IMG/VR virus record: IMGVR_UViG_3300032167_000022
DNA: 25,767 nucleotides
Direction: 5' to 3' (one strand)
From: a virus
Made by a program: the position numbers and the translations under genes. Below, in pieces: positions 9,770 to 25,764 of this stretch (its first letter is position 1; every line of letters begins with the position of its first letter). The notes below the pieces were generated by a model, which did not search any database, had not been told where the DNA came from, and saw nothing but the letters and a program-made list of their open reading frames with translations.

Positions 9770-9990
9770 AGGGTAAAATTTAATAGTTAGTAAAATTTTA
9801 GGTAATTTTTCATAGTTAGTAAGTAATATTTTTATTAATTTTTTAATAGAAATATTATTAGAATATTACTTTTAAAAAAGGTAAAATTACCTAAAAATAT
9901 TGGACAAAAAAGGTAAAATATAAATAAATGAAATTGAAATAATTGTGCGACTAGAAAGGTAATTTTTCATAGTTAGTAAAATTTAGATTG
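9770..9990. repeat. iteron cluster (about 22-bp repeats AGGGTAATTTTTcATAGTTAGTAA) upstream of the rep-like gene
   Basis: Copies at about 9776-9798, 9812-9835 and 9955-9985, plus related AGGTAAAAT half-sites at 9880-9925. The last copy abuts the rep RBS. Confidence 0.6.
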
Positions 9991-10001
9991 GAGGTTTCCT
10001 T

Positions 10002-10685
10002 GTGGTAAAATCAAAAGATTAGATTGAAAAAAGGTTTCCTGCGGATACTACATTAGATTATGAAACTTTTTTAAATACAAATACATTAGATGGTGAATTG
10101 TATGGATTGTTATAGTCTATTTCAATAGCAGAAAAAGTTTGTAAAAAAGATGATAAGGGTGTGGCTTATGAAGTATATGAAACAGTAGTAAAGAAATCAA
10201 TTATTCCAAAACAAATAGATATGTGTGAAAAATTAAAAATTAAAAGTCCAAAAACATTAAGAGCGCATTTGAAGTCATTAAAAGATTAGGGGTATTTAGT
10301 GGAAAAAGAGAATGGAGATTATTATTTGCCAGTAAAAGAAAATATTTATTTAGATATTCCTTTAGCAACTTTAGAATATTTATAGGATAACTGTCGGGAA
10401 CATATTATTAAAATTTATATTTATTTAGTTTAGAAATATAAATATAAAGAAGATTAGAATAAAAGATTAAAATAGTAGGAAAATTATATTTTTACTTTGA
10501 ATGAAATAGCAGAACATATAGGTATATATATAAAAAATAATTAGAGAGCTTATGATATAATTAATCACGCTTTAGAATTATTATATAATTCAAAATTAAT
10601 TGACTATGAAACCATTTATATTAATAAAGTACCAAAGAAAAAATTATTAAATGTATCTTTAGTATATAATAGTAAAAAGAAATAA
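10002..10685 (+). CDS. Rep-like (two winged-helix segments) replication initiator candidate, open only if TAG is read as sense (9 in-frame TAGs)
   Basis: GTG at 10002 follows GGAGGT by 6 nt. Codon-by-codon reading has no TAA or TGA until the TAA at 10683. TAGs lie at 10020, 10113, 10287, 10383, 10431, 10455, 10473, 10476 and 10542. The translation has WH-like segments KQIDMCEKLKIKSPKTLRAHLKSLKD.GYLVEKENGDYYL and FTLNEIAEHIGIYIKNN.RAYDIINHALELLYNSKLIDYET. Flanked by iterons. Confidence 0.55.
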
Positions 10686-10770
10686 AAGGGTAATTTTTAA
10701 TAGTTAGTGAGGGCAATTTTTAATAGTTAGTAAAAAGGAAAAAAGGGTAATTTTTCATATTATATCTAAA
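10686..10770. repeat. iteron copies downstream of the rep-like gene
   Basis: aaaagggtaatttttaatagttagtga, gggcaatttttaatagttagtaa and a partial third copy. Confidence 0.55.
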
Positions 10771-12589: not shown

Positions 12590-12618
12590 ATTATATCATA
12601 AATTTTTAAAAAAGTCAA
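12590..12618 (-). promoter_or_regulatory. promoter cassette TTGACT-17-TGaTATAAT
   Basis: agtcaa at 12613-12618 and attata at 12590-12595, then tca. Confidence 0.7.
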
Positions 12619-12740
12619 ATTTCGGCATTTTAAGCCACGCAAAAAAATTTTTGAGTAAATGTGAGGGAGAGGGTCTTTATTTAAGCCGTAGCTCTCAATA
12701 GATAAGCACTGGCGTATCTCTGGAGAAATCGCGCGTTCAT

Positions 12741-12778
12741 AAAAATTTTACAAAAATTTTTACAAAAATTTTACAATT
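12741..12778. repeat. tandem repeat (AAAAATTTTTACA) x3
   Basis: ttttacaaaaatttttacaaaaattttacaa seen directly. Confidence 0.6.
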
Positions 12779-12779
12779 C

Positions 12780-13050
12780 CGGTCGGCTGGCTGGGGTACT
12801 AGAATTATAGGAAAATGCGCATATAGGCTGAGGGTCGCTAGAAGTAGCAAAAAATTCGCATATGGGGGTCCGAACGGGAACTCGGTCCGCAGCGCCCGCG
12901 CCCGGACCGCTTGACAGGTGTAGAATATGGGAAAATCTGGCTGGACTGGAAAATCCTGGAAATCGCCGCAAAATTTTGTAAATATGGTAAAAAATGGAAA
13001 TCCCGCCCTGCGCGAGCGCAATCGGGCGGCGCAAATGTGAACAAATCTAT
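12780..13050. other. GC-rich non-coding island with repeated GGAAAAT and gcatatgg motifs and several GC hairpins
   Basis: Only spurious overlapping ORFs and no RBS. Hairpins include cggtccg..cggaccg and cgccctgcgcgagcgcaatcgggcggcg. Repeated motifs include ggaaaatgcgcatatagg, aaaattcgcatatggggg and ggaaaatctggctggactggaaaatcctggaaatcgcc. Confidence 0.4.
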
Positions 13051-13100
13051 CATAATTTGTAAACAAATTATTTTTGTATAAAATAACGAAAAAGAAGTGG

Positions 13101-13370
13101 TCATTTGACCACTTCTTCAATAAATGAACCAAGGCAATTAACAATGGTTGTTAAATTGATATATTCATTCAAATCATCAGAATAATAATCGTCATCACCA
13201 AAAATGTTGTCATTGTTAATTTTTTCCAAAATAGCAAAAGCTGTTCGTAACTGCTCTTTAGCGCCCTGTTTTTGATGTGATTTAATAGCACTTTCAACGT
13301 TAGCAAGCTTCTGTTTCAAAGCATTGTATTCGTTCATTAAATCAAGTAAAGTTTCTTCATTCGGCTTCAT
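13101..13370 (-). CDS. hypothetical protein
   Basis: The track ORF starts at TTG 13448, but the SD GGAGGA precedes the ATGs at 13370-13379. Reads MKPNEETLLDLMNEYNALKQKLANVESAIKSHQ... with a TGA stop. Confidence 0.6.
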   Translation of the reverse strand: MKPNEETLLDLMNEYNALKQKLANVESAIKSHQKQGAKEQLRTAFAILEKINNDNIFGDDDYYSDDLNEYINLTTIVNCLGSFIEEVVK

Positions 13371-13944: not shown

Positions 13945-13988
13945 TTTATTTTACTCTCTTTCTCCCCCCCTCTCTGGGGGGTACTATT

Positions 13989-14252: not shown

Positions 14253-14450
14253 TTATTTATTCCTCCATGCGTCTTTAGAATGTTCTTCAATGCGTCCATC
14301 TGCGCGATACCATTTAATGTAAGTGAAGTAAGTAGTTTCAAATACAATGCCATCAACCGCAGGAAGGGCAGACTTGATACAGAAATTTTTTCCTTTATGT
14401 ACTTTTACTCTTGCGGTAGCTTCTAAAAGGTCGCTCATCCACATATCCAT
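14253..14450 (-). CDS. hypothetical protein
   Basis: 65 aa ORF, first after the promoter at 14491; RBS AGAAAGAGAG. Confidence 0.55.
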   Translation of the reverse strand: MDMWMSDLLEATARVKVHKGKNFCIKSALPAVDGIVFETTYFTYIKWYRADGRIEEHSKDAWRNK

Positions 14451-14490
14451 TTTATTTGCTCTCTTTCTGTTGGTTCTTTACTGTATATAT

Positions 14491-14519
14491 ATTATATCAT
14501 ATTTTTATAAAAATGTCAA
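14491..14519 (-). promoter_or_regulatory. promoter cassette TTGACA-17-TGaTATAAT
   Basis: tgtcaa at 14514-14519 and attata at 14491-14496, then tca. Confidence 0.7.
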
Positions 14520-14620
14520 TAGATATTCTTGTTTATTTACAAAATGTTCATAATTGCGGGATTTGTGCGGTTTGTACAAAAATGTTAAAAAAATTTCTGA
14601 AAATTTGTATAGATTACCAC

Positions 14621-14657
14621 TTGACAAAATAACGCCCGTGGCCTCCGGTCGCGGGCG
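14621..14657 (-). terminator. rho-independent terminator
   Basis: Hairpin cgcccgtggcctccggtcgcgggcg; the reverse complement is followed by ttattttgtc. Confidence 0.6.
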
Positions 14658-14714
14658 TTTGAACAAATCAAGTATATTTTGTAAATAAATTATGAACACA
14701 GCATTTTCGTCATT

Positions 14715-14751
14715 ATGCACAAAAGAAAATCCCTCTACATCAGTAGAGGGA
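14715..14751 (-). terminator. rho-independent terminator overlapping the stop of the 14735 gene
   Basis: Hairpin atccctctac-atca-gtagagggat; the reverse complement is followed by tttcttttgtg. The TAG stop lies in the stem. Confidence 0.65.
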
Positions 14752-15133
14752 TTGTATAAGTTTTGCGGATGGTAATTTCTACCTGTGGTGGAATTTCATG
14801 GAGAACAAAGCGGTCGTTCCGCACATATTCACCAATTCCCATTTCCTGCCACTTTTGGCGGTTTCTGTCCTCAAAACGCAGAGTATTATATTTTGAAAGG
14901 GGCAGCTTCCATAAATAGGTAAATTTGCCATCTGGCGGCATTGTGTGTTCAGGGCTTTTCCTATAATTGCGCGTGTGCTCTGCCTGTCTGCGCTTTAGGT
15001 CGTTAGTTGTTCCAATCTTTAGAACAAAATTTTTGTCGGTATCGTGGTAAAAACCCACATAAAGAAACTCTTTTTCTGCCATTTTTGCATCTTTTTGACT
15101 AAAATTTAAGTGAAAAGTGGGAAAAATTCCCAC
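14735..15133 (-). CDS. GIY-YIG-like nuclease domain protein
   Basis: EFLYVGFYHD...FVLKIGTTNDLKRRQAEH matches the GIY-YIG core (KIG.T.....RR...H). It ends in TAG; if TAG is sense, a 14-codon extension runs to the next TAA. Confidence 0.7.
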   Translation of the reverse strand: MGIFPTFHLNFSQKDAKMAEKEFLYVGFYHDTDKNFVLKIGTTNDLKRRQAEHTRNYRKSPEHTMPPDGKFTYLWKLPLSKYNTLRFEDRNRQKWQEMGIGEYVRNDRFVLHEIPPQVEITIRKTYTIPLLM

Positions 15134-15572: not shown

Positions 15573-15594
15573 TGGCAGAGGATTAAACCTCTGC
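15573..15594 (-). other. conserved inter-cistronic RNA hairpin enclosing the stop codon (ggcagagg-tttaa-tcctctgcc)
   Basis: Seen directly. The counterpart at 19679-19700 has a different stem and the same loop. Confidence 0.6.
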
Positions 15595-15981
15595 CAGCTT
15601 GAAGTAGGAAACGCGCTTTTCAATCACCTTTTCCATCTTGCCATCTTCTACCAGCTGACGGACAAGCGCAGTGATTCTCTGCTGGGACAGTCCAGCGCAT
15701 TCGGGAACATTCTTGATGAAGTCAGTAACGGTGTGCTGACCGCCATCATTTGCGAGGTAGTCAAGCATTGCCTGCTTCAGCGCATCGTTTGCTTCCTTCT
15801 TTTCCATCTGCTTGCCAGACGGCTTAGCGTTCTTACGAGCCAGTAGGTCAAGCTCATTTTCAATGAATTCAACGAGCGTGGGGTTAGATGCTACAGAGGG
15901 GATAGCGAGGAGGGCGTTGAAGTGGTCACGCTTGGTGAGCTTCTTTGCGGTAGCGTTGAGAGTAGAATTAGTGTTAGCCAT
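15583..15981 (-). CDS. winged-helix-like DNA-binding protein (paralog family A, member 2)
   Basis: 132 aa ORF; a close paralog of 19693..20082 (for example TVTDFIKNVPECAGLSQQRITALVRQLVEDGKMEKV). Leader ccatggtatcaatcctttcagc is shared. Confidence 0.8.
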   Translation of the reverse strand: MANTNSTLNATAKKLTKRDHFNALLAIPSVASNPTLVEFIENELDLLARKNAKPSGKQMEKKEANDALKQAMLDYLANDGGQHTVTDFIKNVPECAGLSQQRITALVRQLVEDGKMEKVIEKRVSYFKLAEV

Positions 15982-16061: not shown

Positions 16062-16090
16062 ATTATACCATACTTTATGGTATTTGTCAA
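16062..16090 (-). promoter_or_regulatory. promoter cassette P1 of a tandem triple (TTGACA-17-TGgTATAAT)
   Basis: tgtcaa at 16085-16090 and attata at 16062-16067, then cca. UP-like ttgaaaaacttttcaaaaacc upstream. Confidence 0.75.
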
Positions 16091-16223
16091 GGGGTTTTTG
16101 AAAAGTTTTTCAAAAATTTTTTGCGATACTATCAAGATTTGAAGTCAATTTATCGCATTTTGGACTTCACTTGATGAGGAGATTTTTTACGAGGTTTTAC
16201 TCACCCTCGCCCCTGACATATAT

Positions 16224-16252
16224 ATTATACCATACTTTGAGCGATTTGTCAA
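16224..16252 (-). promoter_or_regulatory. promoter cassette P2 of the tandem triple
   Basis: tgtcaa at 16247-16252 and attata at 16224-16229. No ORF between it and P1. Confidence 0.75.
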
Positions 16253-16330
16253 GGGGTTTTTGAAAAGTTTTTCAAATTTTTTTGAGTGGCTTTCGGCGTC
16301 CCCGCGCATCCTTTTGTTTGGTACATATAT

Positions 16331-16359
16331 ATTATACCACACAATCACGTTTTTGTCAA
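16331..16359 (-). promoter_or_regulatory. promoter cassette P3 of the tandem triple
   Basis: tgtcaa at 16354-16359 and attata at 16331-16336, then cca. Confidence 0.7.
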
Positions 16360-16632
16360 GAGGTTTTTCAAAATTTCTCAAAAAATTTTTTCAATATCCA
16401 AGAACAAGTCAGATTGTCAATTTTTGGTAATGGTATAATATGTGAACGAGTCTATGTTCATTTGTTAATTTTTTATTACGGGAAAACGGCTAATTCACTT
16501 GATTGTTAATAAAATGTTTACAATTTTTTTATACGATATCTCTTGACAAAATTTCGCCCGTGACCTCCGGCCGCGGGCGACTCAAAAGTCAAGTGTTTTT
16601 TATAAATAATTTGTAAATAAATTATGAATGCC

Positions 16633-16668
16633 AAAAGTAAAAGAAAGAGAGGGGCTTGCGCCCTCTCC
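16633..16668 (-). terminator. rho-independent terminator
   Basis: Hairpin gagaggg-gcttgcg-ccctctc; the reverse complement is followed by tttcttttactttt. Confidence 0.6.
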
Positions 16669-16671
16669 TTA

Positions 16672-16905: not shown

Positions 16906-16947
16906 TTTATTTTACCTCTTTCTCCCCCCTTTATTGGGGGTACTATT

Positions 16948-16982: not shown

Positions 16983-17240
16983 TTACAAAATTTCTACATT
17001 TTCCCACCAATCTATAAGTTTTACTTCTGTATAATAAGTATCCCACGATTCTTTTTTCTTTTTATCCCATTCTTCTTTTGCTTTAATAAATTTTTCCTGC
17101 ATATCTGTTTCGCTGGTGTAAGCACCCGTATAAAAAATTGTCTCTTTTGTCCAGTTGCCACGAGAGCCTTGTCCACCATCAACATAACAAGCGGGAACAT
17201 AAATTTTTGCCATTTTCATTTGCTTTACAATTCTTGTCAT
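16983..17240 (-). CDS. hypothetical protein
   Basis: 85 aa ORF; its stop overlaps the UP region of the next promoter. Confidence 0.7.
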   Translation of the reverse strand: MTRIVKQMKMAKIYVPACYVDGGQGSRGNWTKETIFYTGAYTSETDMQEKFIKAKEEWDKKKKESWDTYYTEVKLIDWWENVEIL

Positions 17241-17287
17241 TTTATTTTACCTCTCTCTTTTAGTGCCCCCTGTATTGGGGTACTATT

Positions 17288-17316
17288 ATTATACCACACT
17301 TTTGCTTATTTGTCAA
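17288..17316 (-). promoter_or_regulatory. promoter cassette TTGACA-17-TGgTATAAT with leader hairpin
   Basis: tgtcaa at 17311-17316 and attata at 17288-17293. Confidence 0.75.
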
Positions 17317-17333
17317 GGGATTTAGTAAAATTT

Positions 17334-17657
17334 TTATTCATTAAAAATATATTTCATTGTTTCATTTACCAAATCTTCATCATCATAAATAAATGCATAA
17401 CCATCTGCTGTACAAGCAAAAATAACTGCTTCATCTGCTTTACAATATGGTTTAACAATTTCATCCAGTAAATCACACAATTTATCAAAAGTTTTTCTAC
17501 GTGTCACAACATCTGTTTCTTTATAATGTTTATTTATATATATTGATTTATCAATAATCTGTTTGAAATCATTATTGTTTGTTTCAATTTTAATGATGCG
17601 ATGTCCAGTATCTTCTTCATCCATTTTACGTTTTGCTAAAATAATACCAAGTTTCAT
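17334..17657 (-). CDS. hypothetical protein
   Basis: 107 aa ORF. Confidence 0.7.
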   Translation of the reverse strand: MKLGIILAKRKMDEEDTGHRIIKIETNNNDFKQIIDKSIYINKHYKETDVVTRRKTFDKLCDLLDEIVKPYCKADEAVIFACTADGYAFIYDDEDLVNETMKYIFNE

Positions 17658-17699
17658 TTTGTTTTATTCCTTTCTATCCCCTGTATCGGGGATGTATAT

Positions 17700-18464: not shown

Positions 18465-18506
18465 TTGTTTTACCTCTTTCTACCCTCTCTCTTGGAGGGT
18501 ATATAT

Positions 18507-18986: not shown

Positions 18987-19031
18987 TGTTTTATCTCCTT
19001 TGCCTGTTGGCTCTTTGTTTTCTGTATATAT

Positions 19032-19060
19032 ATTATATCATATTATAATAAAAAAGTCAA
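19032..19060 (-). promoter_or_regulatory. promoter cassette TTGACT-17-TGaTATAAT
   Basis: agtcaa at 19055-19060 and attata at 19032-19037. Confidence 0.7.
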
Positions 19061-19162
19061 TAGGTTTTCTTTATTGTTTACAAAATGTTCATAATTGCGG
19101 GATTTGTATGAATTGACTAAAAACGCCCAAAAATTTTCTGAAAATTTGTATACATTACCTAT

Positions 19163-19200
19163 TGACAAAAAAAACGCGCGCCACCATCGGCGACGCGCGT
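19163..19200 (-). terminator. strong rho-independent terminator
   Basis: Hairpin acgcgcgccaccatcggcgacgcgcgt; the reverse complement is followed by ttttttttt. Confidence 0.75.
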
Positions 19201-19249
19201 TTGAACAAATCAAGTATATTTTGTAAACAATTTGTGAACTGGAAATTTT

Positions 19250-19295
19250 CGTCAAAATAAACAAAAATGCATATTACATTTGTAATATGCATTTT
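19250..19295 (-). terminator. rho-independent terminator (16-bp perfect inverted repeat)
   Basis: aaaatgcatattaca-tt-tgtaatatgcatttt; the reverse complement is followed by tgtttattttg. Confidence 0.7.
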
Positions 19296-19304
19296 GGAAA
19301 ATAT

Positions 19305-19678: not shown

Positions 19679-19700
19679 TTGGGGGAGGGGGATTAAACCC
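19679..19700 (-). other. conserved inter-cistronic RNA hairpin enclosing the stop codon (ggaggggg-tttaa-tccccctcc)
   Basis: Seen directly; a structural homolog of 15573-15594. Confidence 0.6.
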
Positions 19701-20082
19701 CCTCCGGAATGCGGAAGTAAGATACGCGCTTTACGATTACCTTTTCAAGCTTGCCATCTTCTACCATCTGGCGAACCAGTGCGGTAATCTTCTGCGGAGA
19801 AAGTCCAGCGCACGCAGGCACGTTCTTGATGAAGTCGGTAACAGTGTGCTGTTCGCCGCTCGCGGTTGCGAATTCAAGAATCGCCGCCTTAAGCCCCTGA
19901 TTTGCGATGTCCTTTTCAGTGAGCTTCTTGTTGTCGCTGTTGTTCTTGCGAGCCAGCAGGTCAAGTTCGTTGTTGATGAAATCAACGAGTGCGGGATTTG
20001 CGGCAACTTCGGGGAGCTGGAGCAGGGTGTTGAAGTGGTCGCGCTTAGTGAGCTTCTTGGAAGTAGAGTTAGTAGTAGCCAT
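19693..20082 (-). CDS. winged-helix-like DNA-binding protein (paralog family A, member 3)
   Basis: 129 aa ORF, highly similar to 15583..15981. Confidence 0.8.
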   Translation of the reverse strand: MATTNSTSKKLTKRDHFNTLLQLPEVAANPALVDFINNELDLLARKNNSDNKKLTEKDIANQGLKAAILEFATASGEQHTVTDFIKNVPACAGLSPQKITALVRQMVEDGKLEKVIVKRVSYFRIPEGV

Positions 20083-20226: not shown

Positions 20227-20333
20227 TGGAGGCAGTGGTAGGAGTTGAACCTACGTTTTCCAATGGCGAACGTTTCCATTTGTTGTATCTCAAGCCATCT
20301 TTATGGAAATAGAGCCGCTTCTATCTCACTGCC
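20227..20333 (-). tRNA. tRNA-like element, atypical length (104 nt plus encoded CCA)
   Basis: The minus strand reads GGCAGTG...atag-aagcggct-ctat...gtagg-TTCAACT-cctac-CACTGCC-t-CCA. It has a 7-bp acceptor stem, a D-arm with GG, and a canonical T-arm and loop. The anticodon region carries about 16 extra nt (a 23-nt loop between tccat and atgga), and no clean anticodon was identified. Confidence 0.4.
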
Positions 20334-21156: not shown

Positions 21157-21198
21157 TGGTCTATCTCTCTTTCTACCCCCTGTATCGGGGGTATATAT

Positions 21199-21632: not shown

Positions 21633-21670
21633 GTTCAAAAACCGGCCGCTTGGAGCGCGGGCGGCCGGCC
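21633..21670 (-). terminator. rho-independent terminator
   Basis: Hairpin ccggccgc-ttggagcgcgg-gcggccgg; the reverse complement is followed by tttttg. Confidence 0.6.
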
Positions 21671-21767: not shown

Positions 21768-21796
21768 ATAAAAAACCGCCCAAAGGCGGCTTTTAT
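21768..21796. terminator. bidirectional rho-independent terminator
   Basis: aaaaaaccgcccaaaggcggctttta. Confidence 0.75.
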
Positions 21797-22069
21797 TTAA
21801 TAGGTGATACGAATATTATTCAATCTATCTGTATATGATTCTGGACCATCTTCTTCAAACAGTCTTGTTCCGTTAGCAACTCTTCCACGTTGAACGCAGA
21901 AGAAAATACCATCTTTTCTTGCCCGAGAAATTAAATCATTAAATTCTTCCATATAATTATCGCGTGTAATTTCTTTTTTTCTTCTTTCAATGATAAGTTT
22001 AAGCTCTTCGGCGGTGACTTCCATCAGAACAACATTCTCTTCAACTTCATTAAATCTACCAGTAGGCAT
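21797..22069 (-). CDS. hypothetical protein
   Basis: 90 aa ORF. Confidence 0.7.
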   Translation of the reverse strand: MPTGRFNEVEENVVLMEVTAEELKLIIERRKKEITRDNYMEEFNDLISRARKDGIFFCVQRGRVANGTRLFEEDGPESYTDRLNNIRITY

Positions 22070-23267: not shown

Positions 23268-23384
23268 TGAATATTCTGTAAATAGATTGTGAAGTTTCTG
23301 TGAACTGGCCTATTGGTAGTTTCAGGAAATGGGAAACATATGCGAATTATCCAGTTTTTGCCATAAAAAATGCGGAATTAGGTG

Positions 23385-23435
23385 GCCATTAGAAATACCG
23401 CTCGTTTCGGGTGGTAAACGCCCGGAAACGAGCGG
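23385..23435 (-). terminator. rho-independent terminator (11-bp stem)
   Basis: ccgctcgtttc...gaaacgagcgg; the reverse complement is followed by tatttctaat. Confidence 0.55.
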
Positions 23436-23454: not shown

Positions 23455-23545
23455 TTTTAAAAAAATTTTATGAACAAATTGTGAACAAAATATGAACAAA
23501 AATGTATGAACAAATTGTGAACAGAATATGAACAAATTGTTACCA
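23455..23545. repeat. six tandem copies of (T)ATGAACAAA(T)
   Basis: tatgaacaaattgtgaacaaaatatgaacaaaaatgtatgaacaaattgtgaacagaatatgaacaaattg. Confidence 0.65.
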
Positions 23546-24508: not shown

Positions 24509-24538
24509 TTGACGAACGAACATTTGTTCGCGTATAGT
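24509..24538 (+). promoter_or_regulatory. plus-strand promoter TTGACG-18-TATAGT with a perfect Firmicutes LexA (Cheo) box CGAACATTTGTTCG in the spacer
   Basis: ttgacg at 24509-24514, cgaacatttgttcg at 24517-24530, tatagt at 24533-24538. Confidence 0.5.
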
Positions 24539-24696: not shown

Positions 24697-24960
24697 CGCG
24701 AAAACTGTTTTTTCCAAAAACTGGAATTTCGTGAAAATTTTAACAATCGCGCGGCCGCCCCTTATTTTAACACTTTATCACTTTACCATACTAAAGCGCG
24801 ACTTCGGGGCCCCGCGACACTTGTCGTACAAAACGGAAGGCTGGCATTGTGAAATTTTTCACAAACACGAAAATCGTCAAAAAACTGTTTTTCACTTTCA
24901 CGCTTTACCATACTAAAGTGTGTGAAATTTTTAACAATCGGCGGGCCGCAGGGGAGAGGG
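24697..24960. repeat. two diverged direct repeats (aaaactgtttttc..., ctttaccatactaaag, gtgaaatttttaacaatcg-GC hairpin)
   Basis: Shared blocks at 24697-24770 and 24870-24960, seen directly. Confidence 0.5.
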
Positions 24961-25270
24961 TTTGTTAACAAAAAATTTACAATTTAAAAATTTACAATTT
25001 GTTTACATTCGGGAGAATTTGTTCACAATTTATTTACAATTTATTTAAAAAAAAATATTGAAATTCACAGTTTGTTCACAAATTCGGGCCCTGGGGCCCG
25101 AGAACAGAGATAATTGTGAACAAATTGTAAATTTTTTGTTAACAATTCATAAATTGTTAACAAAAAATTTACAATTTGTTCACAATTTGTTCACATTCGG
25201 GAAATAAAAAGTTTACAATTTGTTCACAATTTGTTTACAAAAAATTCACAAATTGTTCACAATTTGTGAA
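24960..25270. repeat. dense array (more than 20 copies) of an 11-12-bp repeat ACAATTTGTTCACA / TTGTGAACAA with three TCACAttCGGG punctuations
   Basis: Examples: tttacaatttgtttacattcggg, aatttgttcacaatttatttacaattt, aattgtgaacaaattgtaaat, tttacaatttgttcacaatttgttcacattcggg, ttcacaaattgttcacaatttgtgaac. Confidence 0.7.
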
Positions 25271-25399
25271 CTCCGGCCGCTTGGAACGCGAGCGGCCGGC
25301 TCAAAATCAAGCATATTTTGTAAATAATTTGTAAATTAAAAATGAATTTTTTGTAAACAATTTATGAATTTTTTATTCATAGAAATTTTACAATTTGTT

Positions 25400-25442
25400 C
25401 ATAAATTAAAAATGGTAAATGCTGGAATTACCAGCATTTACC
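25400..25442 (-). terminator. rho-independent terminator with the stop codon in the loop (12-bp stem)
   Basis: ggtaaatgctgg-aatta-ccagcatttacc; the reverse complement is followed by atttttaatttat. Confidence 0.7.
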
Positions 25443-25709: not shown

Positions 25710-25726
25710 TAGGTTTTTGAAAAGTT

Positions 25727-25764
<38 letters not shown>

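Follow-up and report, generated by a model that had tools for sequence, protein, structure and literature searches.

A repeated intergenic module with a covarying GC hairpin in a phage-like early region

Two non-coding segments of IMG/VR virus record IMGVR_UViG_3300032167_000022, at 14530-14700 and 19065-19250 of the 25,767-nt stretch analysed here (the window), resemble each other except in a hairpin, raising the question of why such a sequence should be repeated between genes while its hairpin changes. The initial annotation read them as copies of a mobile or duplicated module of roughly 190 bp, placed between a terminator and the next promoter and selected for hairpin structure. This interpretation is supported in its essentials once the element is placed on the minus strand. 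We propose that the module is probably an operon-boundary cassette of an early, host-takeover-like region in an uncultured gut phage of Bacillota, that is, a terminator-promoter composite similar to the promoter-early stem-loop (PeSL) motifs of T4-type phages (Arbiol et al. 2010, PMC2839356; Comeau et al. 2014, PMC4122927).

The window looks like the early region of a phage. In its list of open reading frames (ORFs), nearly all plausible genes are small and lie on the minus strand, and a promoter scan of the 12.5-25.7 kb half gave, on the same strand, about 20 TTGACA-N17-TGnTATAAT promoters that are perfect or nearly so. The strong Shine-Dalgarno sites, along with promoters of the extended -10 type, suggest that the host belongs to the Bacillota. 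The repeated element likewise has its genes and T-runs on the minus strand, on which the module reads in the following order: the stop codon of a gene, an ordinary hairpin and T-run terminator (T1), an AT-rich spacer of 45-110 nt built from 11-nt phased units (TTYACAAWTTG), a GC hairpin with, in most cases, a T-run after it (T2), an upstream region, a promoter of the form TTGACA-N17-TGnTATAAT, a 5′ untranslated region (5′UTR), a ribosome-binding site and the next gene. The distance from the GC hairpin to the promoter is 100-400 nt across modules and about 115 nt in the type represented by the two segments above.

These two copies, A (14477-14724) and B (19018-19266), were aligned by BLAST with 81.7% identity over 251 nt (E 8e-53) and were also found by a repeat search. 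The repeat is thus real. By segment, the identity outside the hairpin, first given as about 85%, is 81% (50/62) from T1 to the hairpin, 82% (93/114) from the hairpin to the -35 box, 90% (26/29) in the promoter and 78% in the 5′UTR, before falling to 40% upstream of T1. The homology therefore runs through the promoter and the 5′UTR, further than first described, and the module does lie between a terminator and the next promoter, as had been stated. Low-complexity AT-rich sequence had been named as the alternative that would account for the similarity. The two copies share stretches that are not of low complexity, such as ACAAATCCCGCAATTATGAACATTTTGTAAA, so that it reflects homology and not AT-richness.

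Identity drops to 60% (15/25) in the hairpin itself. The two hairpins had been called entirely different in sequence but equally stable, and both statements need correction: each is exactly 25 nt long and they align without gaps at 15 of 25 positions, and on the gene strand the predicted stability is -16.2 kcal/mol for A, which contains two C×A mismatches, against -23.9 kcal/mol for B. The 10 differences consist of two C-G/G-C flips (pairs 4/22 and 8/18), two pairs that are C×A in A and G·U in B, and two loop bases, so that the 8 changed stem positions make up four full pairs and no change is one-sided (chance P ~0.001). The same pattern was found when 14 copies were aligned, taken from the window and from seven related phage contigs; each is exactly 25 nt long, and no gaps were needed. 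Standard pairs fill 87% of the stem cells versus 77% in shuffled alignments (0/500), the covariation score is 0.251 versus 0.129 (0/500), and three pairs have changed on both sides, alternating between C-G and G-C (for example column 34/52: CG in 7 copies, GC in 6 and UA in 1). When the 3′ partners were slid as a control, pairing was 28-50%. The basal 6-8 bp are almost always paired and the apical three pairs are loose. With the A/B differences confined to pairs changed on both sides and the covariation above that of every shuffle, the hairpin is, on comparative grounds, under selection for pairing, as the initial annotation had proposed. An outer helix formed by CTTGAY/RTCAAG was rejected as a selected structure, its changes being uncompensated (TTGAT to TAGAT). 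At the module, Rfam gave nothing at gathering level and, also at E<=1, only sub-threshold chance matches, for example SurA (25.8 bits against a threshold of 100) at 19158-19298.

The window holds at least seven long modules, about 2 kb apart, where three copies had been described (Table 1), and short promoter cassettes without a GC hairpin lie between them. A terminator scan placed T1-type terminators mainly at the long modules, which suggests that these mark operon ends. The segment at 16500-16625, first described as a partial copy, is indeed one and lies in module C; its hairpin agrees with that of A at 23 of 25 positions and its flanks are of a different subtype. In module A, the stop codon of the upstream gene falls within the T1 stem, the spacer consists of about four 11-nt phased units (TGTTCATAATT, TATTTACAAAA, TATACTTGATT and TGTTCAAACGC) with an inverted-repeat partner at 14532-14555, and the region between hairpin and promoter contains a T-run with GTCAAG, which looks like the relic of a -35 box, TATACAAATTTTCAGAAA, in which a palindrome similar to a CodY box lies at 14591-14605, and ACAAATCCCGCAATTATGAACATTTTGTAAA. 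Module B has a GC hairpin of textbook form for an intrinsic terminator, in which two pairs are G·U on the gene strand, and its upstream region includes a perfect CodY-box-like AATTTTCTGAAAATT at 19132-19146. About 400 nt of conserved non-coding sequence separate hairpin and promoter in module G. We also observed that G (12620-13000) and D (23270-23400) carry, on the minus strand, 130-400 nt of extra, more GC-rich non-coding sequence between hairpin and promoter, which is 85% identical in the related contigs L038, L040 and L042 and has the short motifs ATATGCGAATT and TTTCCAGGA in common; no promoter, ORF or Rfam match was found in it.

Table 1. Positions of the modules, their parts and associated features (window coordinates unless a related contig is named)
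Feature	Position	Strand	Remarks
Long module G	12.56-13.12 kb	minus	
Long module A	14.45-14.75 kb	minus	
Long module C	16.36-16.67 kb	minus	
Long module B	18.99-19.30 kb	minus	
Long module E	21.52-21.80 kb	minus	
Long module D	23.27-23.59 kb	minus	
Long module F	24.95-25.45 kb	minus	
A, T1	14728-14753	minus	AATCCCTCTACTGATGTAGAGGGATT then TTCTTTTG; terminator scan
A, AT-rich spacer	14658-14720	minus	opens with conserved GTGCATAAT; 81% identical to B
A, GC hairpin (T2)	14633-14657	minus	25 nt; CGCCCGCGACC-GGA-GGCCACGGGCG, then TTATTTTG
A, hairpin-to-promoter region	14520-14632	minus	82% identical to B; 90-98% between orthologues
A, promoter	14491-14519	minus	extended -10 sigma-A/sigma-70 consensus TTGACA-N17(TG)-TATAAT; 12/12 + TG
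A, 5′UTR and ribosome-binding region	14451-14490	minus	65-amino-acid gene at 14253-14450; common to copies B and D
B, T1	19264-19295	minus	AT-rich 14-bp hairpin, then T-run
B, GC hairpin (T2)	19175-19199	minus	25 nt; CGCGCGTCGCC-GAT-GGTGGCGCGCG, then TTTTTTTTG; scan: 14 pairs, 9 GC
B, upstream region and promoter	19032-19174	minus	promoter TTGACT-N17-TATAAT at 19032-19060
C, GC hairpin	16555-16579	minus	23/25 as A; flanks CTTGACTTTTGAGT upstream, AAATTTTGTCAAGAG downstream; T1 16644-16670
E, GC hairpin	21642-21668	minus	CCGGCCGC...GCGGCCGG, then TTTTTG; T1 21771-21794
F, hairpin F2	25273-25299	minus	near-identical to E
F, hairpin F1	25085-25100	minus	within ~300 bp of 11-bp repeats
D, hairpin	23398-23435	minus	14-nt arms; adjoins 6-copy 11-bp TGAACA array 23468-23538
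G, GC hairpin	13003-13029	minus	T1 13091-13118; promoter 12590-12618
C-run/G-run hairpins	13962-13981, 16923-16940, 17268-17280, 17675-17694, 18481-18501, 21174-21193	minus	followed by polypurine ribosome-binding sites
Sense-side promoters at hairpin, relatives	L111 11671; L113 9462, 11707, 13485		
Antisense-side promoters at hairpin, relatives	L113 7983, 11772; L114 ~10990		
Antisense-facing promoter regions, relatives	L113 7937-8010; L111 14405-14480; L114 10913-10990		
AbrB/SpoVT genes, relatives	L038 11359-11718; L040 11311-11673; L044 5732-6085; L111 8998-9303; L114 7975-8262		

The same DNA is found on seven metagenome contigs at 99.97-100% identity, the longest of 91 kb, and contigs with identical proteins (L031-L037, 99.97-100% identical to the window) are uninformative for comparison. 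Related contigs L038-L044 were reached through homologues of a 143-amino-acid protein (70-90% identity), and the distant relatives L111, L113 and L114 share 66-70% identity of a 234-amino-acid protein. This exonuclease-like protein has more than 6,500 homologues in metagenomes (6,548); its identity is about 40% with proteins from Enterococcus phages of 138-142 kb and 29% with phAss-1. Most of the 20 proteins scanned near the modules lack a significant Pfam or PHROG match, the exceptions being weak T5orf172 matches for g14735 and g23592 and an exonuclease-like PHROG match for g20452. Megablast found no match in known phage genomes, a distant search there matched the promoter consensus only, and a search for related loci in IMG/VR gave a single match at 24% identity.

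Comparison with the closer relatives shows how the module travels. The orthologous B modules of L038 and L040 are 96% identical to that of the window in the GC hairpin, 90-91% from the hairpin to the -35 box and 100% in the promoter, and the genes beside them are 85-86% (downstream) and 61% (upstream) identical; in these alignments of related phages the module has diverged no more than the adjacent genes have. The hairpin and TTGACA-N17-TGnTATAAT are conserved as a single block, between paralogous copies as well as between orthologues. In L038-L041 the T1 of module B is a different, unrelated hairpin that has been exchanged along with the upstream gene. As the rest of the module is kept, the conserved unit extends from the spacer to the 5′UTR, and T1 belongs to the preceding gene cassette. 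The genes flanking A and B are unrelated (the only paralogue pair nearby, 15583-15981 and 19693-20082, has 67% amino-acid identity) and the ORFs that cross the module change frame, which together with its conservation in related phages agrees with the earlier description of a duplicated, portable non-coding module. Hairpins and flanks do not always share the same history: the hairpin of A resembles that of C and its flanks those of B, E and F1 have 85%-identical flanks and different hairpins, and E and F2 have the same hairpin. This discordance suggests that exchange among copies contributes beside compensatory point substitution.

Mosaicism among these phages also centres on the cassettes. 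When the window was compared with four relatives, 18 of 36 ends of homology blocks fell within 40 nt of a promoter or terminator, versus 10.2 expected (P ~0.004), and single genes are replaced exactly from 5′UTR to terminator, for example at 21776-22060. Recombination at the cassettes probably drives the mosaicism, although the breakpoint test is crude, as it relies on BLAST block ends and on four relatives that are not independent.

Taken together, these data lead us to propose the following scheme. The minus-strand early region would be transcribed by the host sigma-A RNA polymerase, each early operon of about 2 kb closing with its own T1 and being followed by the conserved module. The GC hairpin would be a second, module-borne terminator behind the T1 of the gene; T2 would stop in vivo those polymerases that passed T1 and, by preventing read-through, may insulate the very strong promoter that comes next. 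Only the pairing of the hairpin would matter, its sequence being left to drift by compensatory change or by exchange of copies, and the flanks would be held alike by selection and by recombination among copies. Since the same cassette stands ahead of unrelated genes, it would supply the homology needed for swapping gene cassettes, a mode of action also proposed for PeSL elements in T4-type phages.

Termination on the gene strand is the best reading of T2, as far as sequence allows. The 25-nt hairpins have predicted energies of -16 to -24 kcal/mol on that strand, and in most copies T-rich tails lie 3′ of the stem on the minus strand (TTTTTTTTG in B, TTATTTTG in A, TTTTTG in E, and also in G), with good T-tails in the A copies of L038, L040 and L042 as well. 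No T-run follows the stem on the plus strand in any copy, and no comparable A-run precedes the hairpins. The strand could not be assigned from G·U versus A×C pairs, the copies pointing both ways. Several observations weigh against this view of the hairpin as a terminator. The tail is weak (AAATTTTG) in C-type copies and in the B-type copies of L038 and L040; F1 and F2 of the window lack a T-run, which the F2 orthologues of L040 and L042 do have (TTTTTG); the window copy of A carries its two C×A mismatches; and about half of the hairpins fold better on the opposite strand. Moreover, a plain back-up terminator explains neither the 11-bp arrays of inverted orientation around the hairpin nor the intact consensus promoters, sense and/or antisense, that directly flank the hairpin in distant relatives.

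These last promoters suggest another reading, to which we give a low probability: the hairpin would be the core of a miniature transcription unit, into which a sense (Pa) and/or an antisense (Pas) promoter fires, yielding a hairpin RNA of about 40 nt, an antisense RNA with a 5′ hairpin, or an RNA polymerase that is held or occluded, and the copies of the window would be weakened versions of it. In L111, L113 and L114 only 0-13 nt separate the homologous 25-nt hairpin and the -10 box of a perfect or near-perfect sigma-A promoter (12.5-13.5 of 13.5 in the scan). At L113 11707/11772, two perfect promoters face each other across the hairpin, about 65 bp apart, and no T-run is found on either side of the hairpin at this site (L113 11700-11800). 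L111 (14452) and L040 (~12790) have further antisense promoters, directed at GC hairpins that are not part of the alignment. Within the window, TATACT (14671-14676) aligns with the -10 box of the relatives at the same 13-nt distance from the hairpin, the -35-like CTTGAY and RTCAAG abut the hairpins, and AAATTTTGTCAAGAG resembles Pas minus its spacer and -10 box. However, in the clade of the window (the window and L038-L044) no promoter scoring above 10 of 13.5 was found beside the hairpin on either strand, the putative -35 box at TATACT is TGTTCA, with 3/6 matches, and no function is known for such an RNA, which has no Rfam match. A plus-strand TTGAAC-N17-TAAATA of A and B was discarded as a promoter, as it is not conserved in C, E and F. 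Of promoters that are intact in its distant relatives, the window retains relics only. That the ancestral unit consisted of facing host promoters across the hairpin, between the terminator of a gene and the next promoter, as still seen intact at L113 11707-11800, seems to us a proposal of low probability. If true, the unit could trap RNA polymerase or serve as an insulator, or it could give rise to tiny hairpin RNAs, sense and antisense, that time the early genes, and in the window phage the 11-bp arrays would have taken the place of the promoters and may bind a delayed TAG-recoded winged-helix regulator.

The arrays are also the basis of a reading of comparably low probability, in which the module acts as DNA: the phased TTYACAA/TGAACA repeats would be protein sites or bent DNA, the hairpin would be secondary, and a binder would silence, activate or organise the early region, the candidates being the TAG-recoded winged-helix protein encoded at 10002-10685 or CodY at AATTTTCTGAAAATT. 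Arrays of 11 bp occur at 23468-23538, 24991-25047 and 25171-25267 and shorter ones in every module; the motif has opposite orientations on the two sides of the hairpin, which in A, B, C, E and F lies between long inverted repeats that are imperfect. The upstream region is conserved above coding DNA, and the 15-bp CodY-box pattern AATTTTCWGAAAATT is in excess (19 matches vs 8.8 expected). The CodY-like boxes of the modules, perfect in B and with one mismatch in A, lie 72-86 nt upstream of the -35 box; all B orthologues keep the box, which the A copies of L038 and L040 lack. No binder of the arrays has been identified, and the covariation of the stem indicates that the hairpin itself is selected for pairing. 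A role at the DNA level is nevertheless compatible with the operon-boundary cassette, and the two are not exclusive.

Among the regulators considered as array binders, LexA and DnaA were discarded for misfit of the motif (GAAC-N7-GAAC direct repeats; DnaA box 7/9). An AbrB/MazE-like regulator was also discarded: the early region of several relatives encodes an AbrB/SpoVT DNA-binding protein (MazE_antitoxin in Pfam; Table 1), a gene absent from the window, which has other genes at this position (16983-17657). The largest 11-bp array of the window, at 24950-25430, contains two GC hairpins, and a perfect 36-nt inverted repeat with a 4-nt loop (25112-25187) lies inside about 300 bp of 11-bp TTYACAATTTG repeats.

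The candidate regulator at 10002-10685 is encoded on the plus strand, opposite to the early genes, by a 227-codon ORF that starts with GTG, ends with TAA and is preceded by the ribosome-binding site GGAGG at 9990-9994. In a region of 24% GC, this ORF contains 9 in-frame TAG and no in-frame TAA or TGA, so that TAG is evidently a sense codon in this ORF, the sole clearly recoded gene of the window. Stop-codon recoding occurs in gut phages of the phAss type (PMC10607447). When TAG is translated as Q, the product matches winged-helix helix-turn-helix families (HTH_11, 24.5 bits, E 2.5e-5; LexA_DNA_bind). At least 6 copies of a motif of about 23 nt, GGGTAATTTTTMATAGTTAGTRA, flank the gene (9772-9826, 9957-9980 and 10687-10760), one of them immediately before its ribosome-binding site; operators, or promoters of a class other than sigma-A, are conceivable roles for them.

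We consider it highly improbable that the hairpin and its short inverted flanks form a self-mobile palindromic element, akin to miniature inverted-repeat transposable elements or repetitive extragenic palindromic sequences, that has inserted repeatedly into AT-rich intergenic DNA. In its favour, the hairpins are GC-rich palindromes in an AT-rich genome, bounded by CTTGAY...RTCAAG, and one flank occurs with different hairpins (E vs F1) and one hairpin in different flanks (A vs C). Against it, the relatives offer no empty site, each orthologous position keeping its own hairpin type, the changes in the CTTGAY/RTCAAG helix are uncompensated, target-site duplications are lacking, and the position of the hairpin is fixed relative to T1, the T-run and the promoter. 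Moreover, IMG/VR scanned with a flank 18-mer, the exact hairpin and a flank-gap-flank pattern, and one JGI metagenome scan, returned chance matches only, none with a GC hairpin, and thus no copies elsewhere. Finally, a chance similarity of AT-rich DNA, or a module that codes for a small protein, as might be thought from the ORFs of 71/73 (minus strand) and 44/43 (plus strand) amino acids that span both copies, is refuted by the BLAST E value over 251 nt and by the ORFs themselves, which start at GTG or TTG with no ribosome-binding site, extend across the promoter and, to one side of the hairpin, are in different frames in the two copies.

Other features of the window were noted along with the modules. 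On the minus strand, three perfect promoters stand in tandem within 16100-16360 (16331-16359, 16224-16252 and 16062-16090), 45-115 nt apart and with no ORF between them, the middle unit being missing or diverged in L042; they possibly produce small RNAs or are stacked promoters. Many short promoter cassettes have a C-run/G-run hairpin directly after the -10 box and start site, at the 5′ end of the predicted mRNA, for which a role as 5′ stabiliser is possible. Between two perfect promoter cassettes without an ORF, a transfer RNA (tRNA)-like RNA is encoded at 20230-20333 (minus strand; Rfam tRNA, 29.4 bits for a gathering threshold of 29), with a perfect 7-bp acceptor stem, D and T arms and an encoded CCA; the anticodon loop region carries an insertion of 41 nt. 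The predicted fold is a cloverleaf whose anticodon arm is long (z -2.4), and in the T stem of its orthologues in L042-L044 an A-U pair has become G-C by compensatory change; ARAGORN did not call it, whether introns were allowed or not. A perfect Gram-positive LexA (Cheo) box, CGAACATTTGTTCG, occurs at 24516-24529 (plus strand), within the spacer of a plus-strand promoter-like site, TTGACG-N18-TATAGT (24509-24538), antisense to the early genes. Near the end of the window, a 33-nt stretch of 93% T (25725-25757) coincides within a few bases with the contig ends of several independent assemblies (L033, L034 and L036), which indicates either an assembly break at a homopolymer or a true end or repeat boundary.

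Which known arrangement does the operon-boundary cassette resemble? PeSLs are composite motifs, made of a terminator and a near-perfect sigma-70 promoter, that are tied to indels in the hyperplastic regions of T4-type phages (PMC4122927). The module shares with them the design of a short conserved intergenic cassette with a stem-loop and a near-perfect sigma-70 promoter (TTGACA-N17-TATAAT), the presence of many copies among small, variable and mostly ORFan early genes, a stem-loop sequence more variable than the promoter, and an association with gene insertion, deletion and replacement between close relatives. It differs in belonging to another phage lineage and host phylum (with a Bacillota-type extended -10 box), the window phage being distantly related to 135-142 kb Enterococcus/phAss-like siphoviruses and not T4-type. 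It is also longer (about 250 nt versus about 50-60), a second terminator that belongs to the gene lies upstream of it, it has phased arrays of 11 bp, its stem-loop and promoter are about 115 nt apart, and its cassette recombination is deduced from comparison. In the absence of sequence homology, the module is to be regarded as an analogue of PeSLs and not as a member of the family.

A host-takeover module is also known from Bacillus phage SPO1 (PMC6873191, PMC10531801). The window resembles it in its dense one-strand run of small early genes of unknown function, arranged in operons bounded by terminators, and in its many unusually strong host-type promoters and strong ribosome-binding sites. 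Stewart et al. (1998) reportedly described this SPO1 cluster as lying in the terminal redundancy, its small early genes being served by terminators and by sigma-A promoters of great strength. To our knowledge, a repeated 250-nt boundary module with a covarying GC hairpin has not been reported in SPO1. Tandem intrinsic terminators are found behind strong units such as rrnB, where T1-T2, two hairpin and T-run terminators, suppress read-through. The early operons of the window would similarly have two terminators in series after a strongly transcribed unit, with the difference that the second one belongs to the downstream promoter module, that phased repeats lie between the two, and that the arrangement forms a genome-wide family.

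The cassette is a useful but unsurprising example of portable phage regulatory DNA. It would extend the idea of portable terminator-promoter cassettes, which regulate and shuffle early genes, from T4-type coliphages to a very abundant lineage of large gut phages of Bacillota, and it offers a clean natural case in which the stem of a terminator evolves through compensatory changes while its surroundings are conserved. Its roughly 20 perfect promoters, with matched terminators of the same shape and different sequence, may serve as a parts list for Gram-positive synthetic biology. The more intriguing leads are the convergent-promoter form found in the relatives and the side observations; that form, together with the nearby TAG-recoded DNA-binding gene, may give access to the timing of early transcription in these phages.

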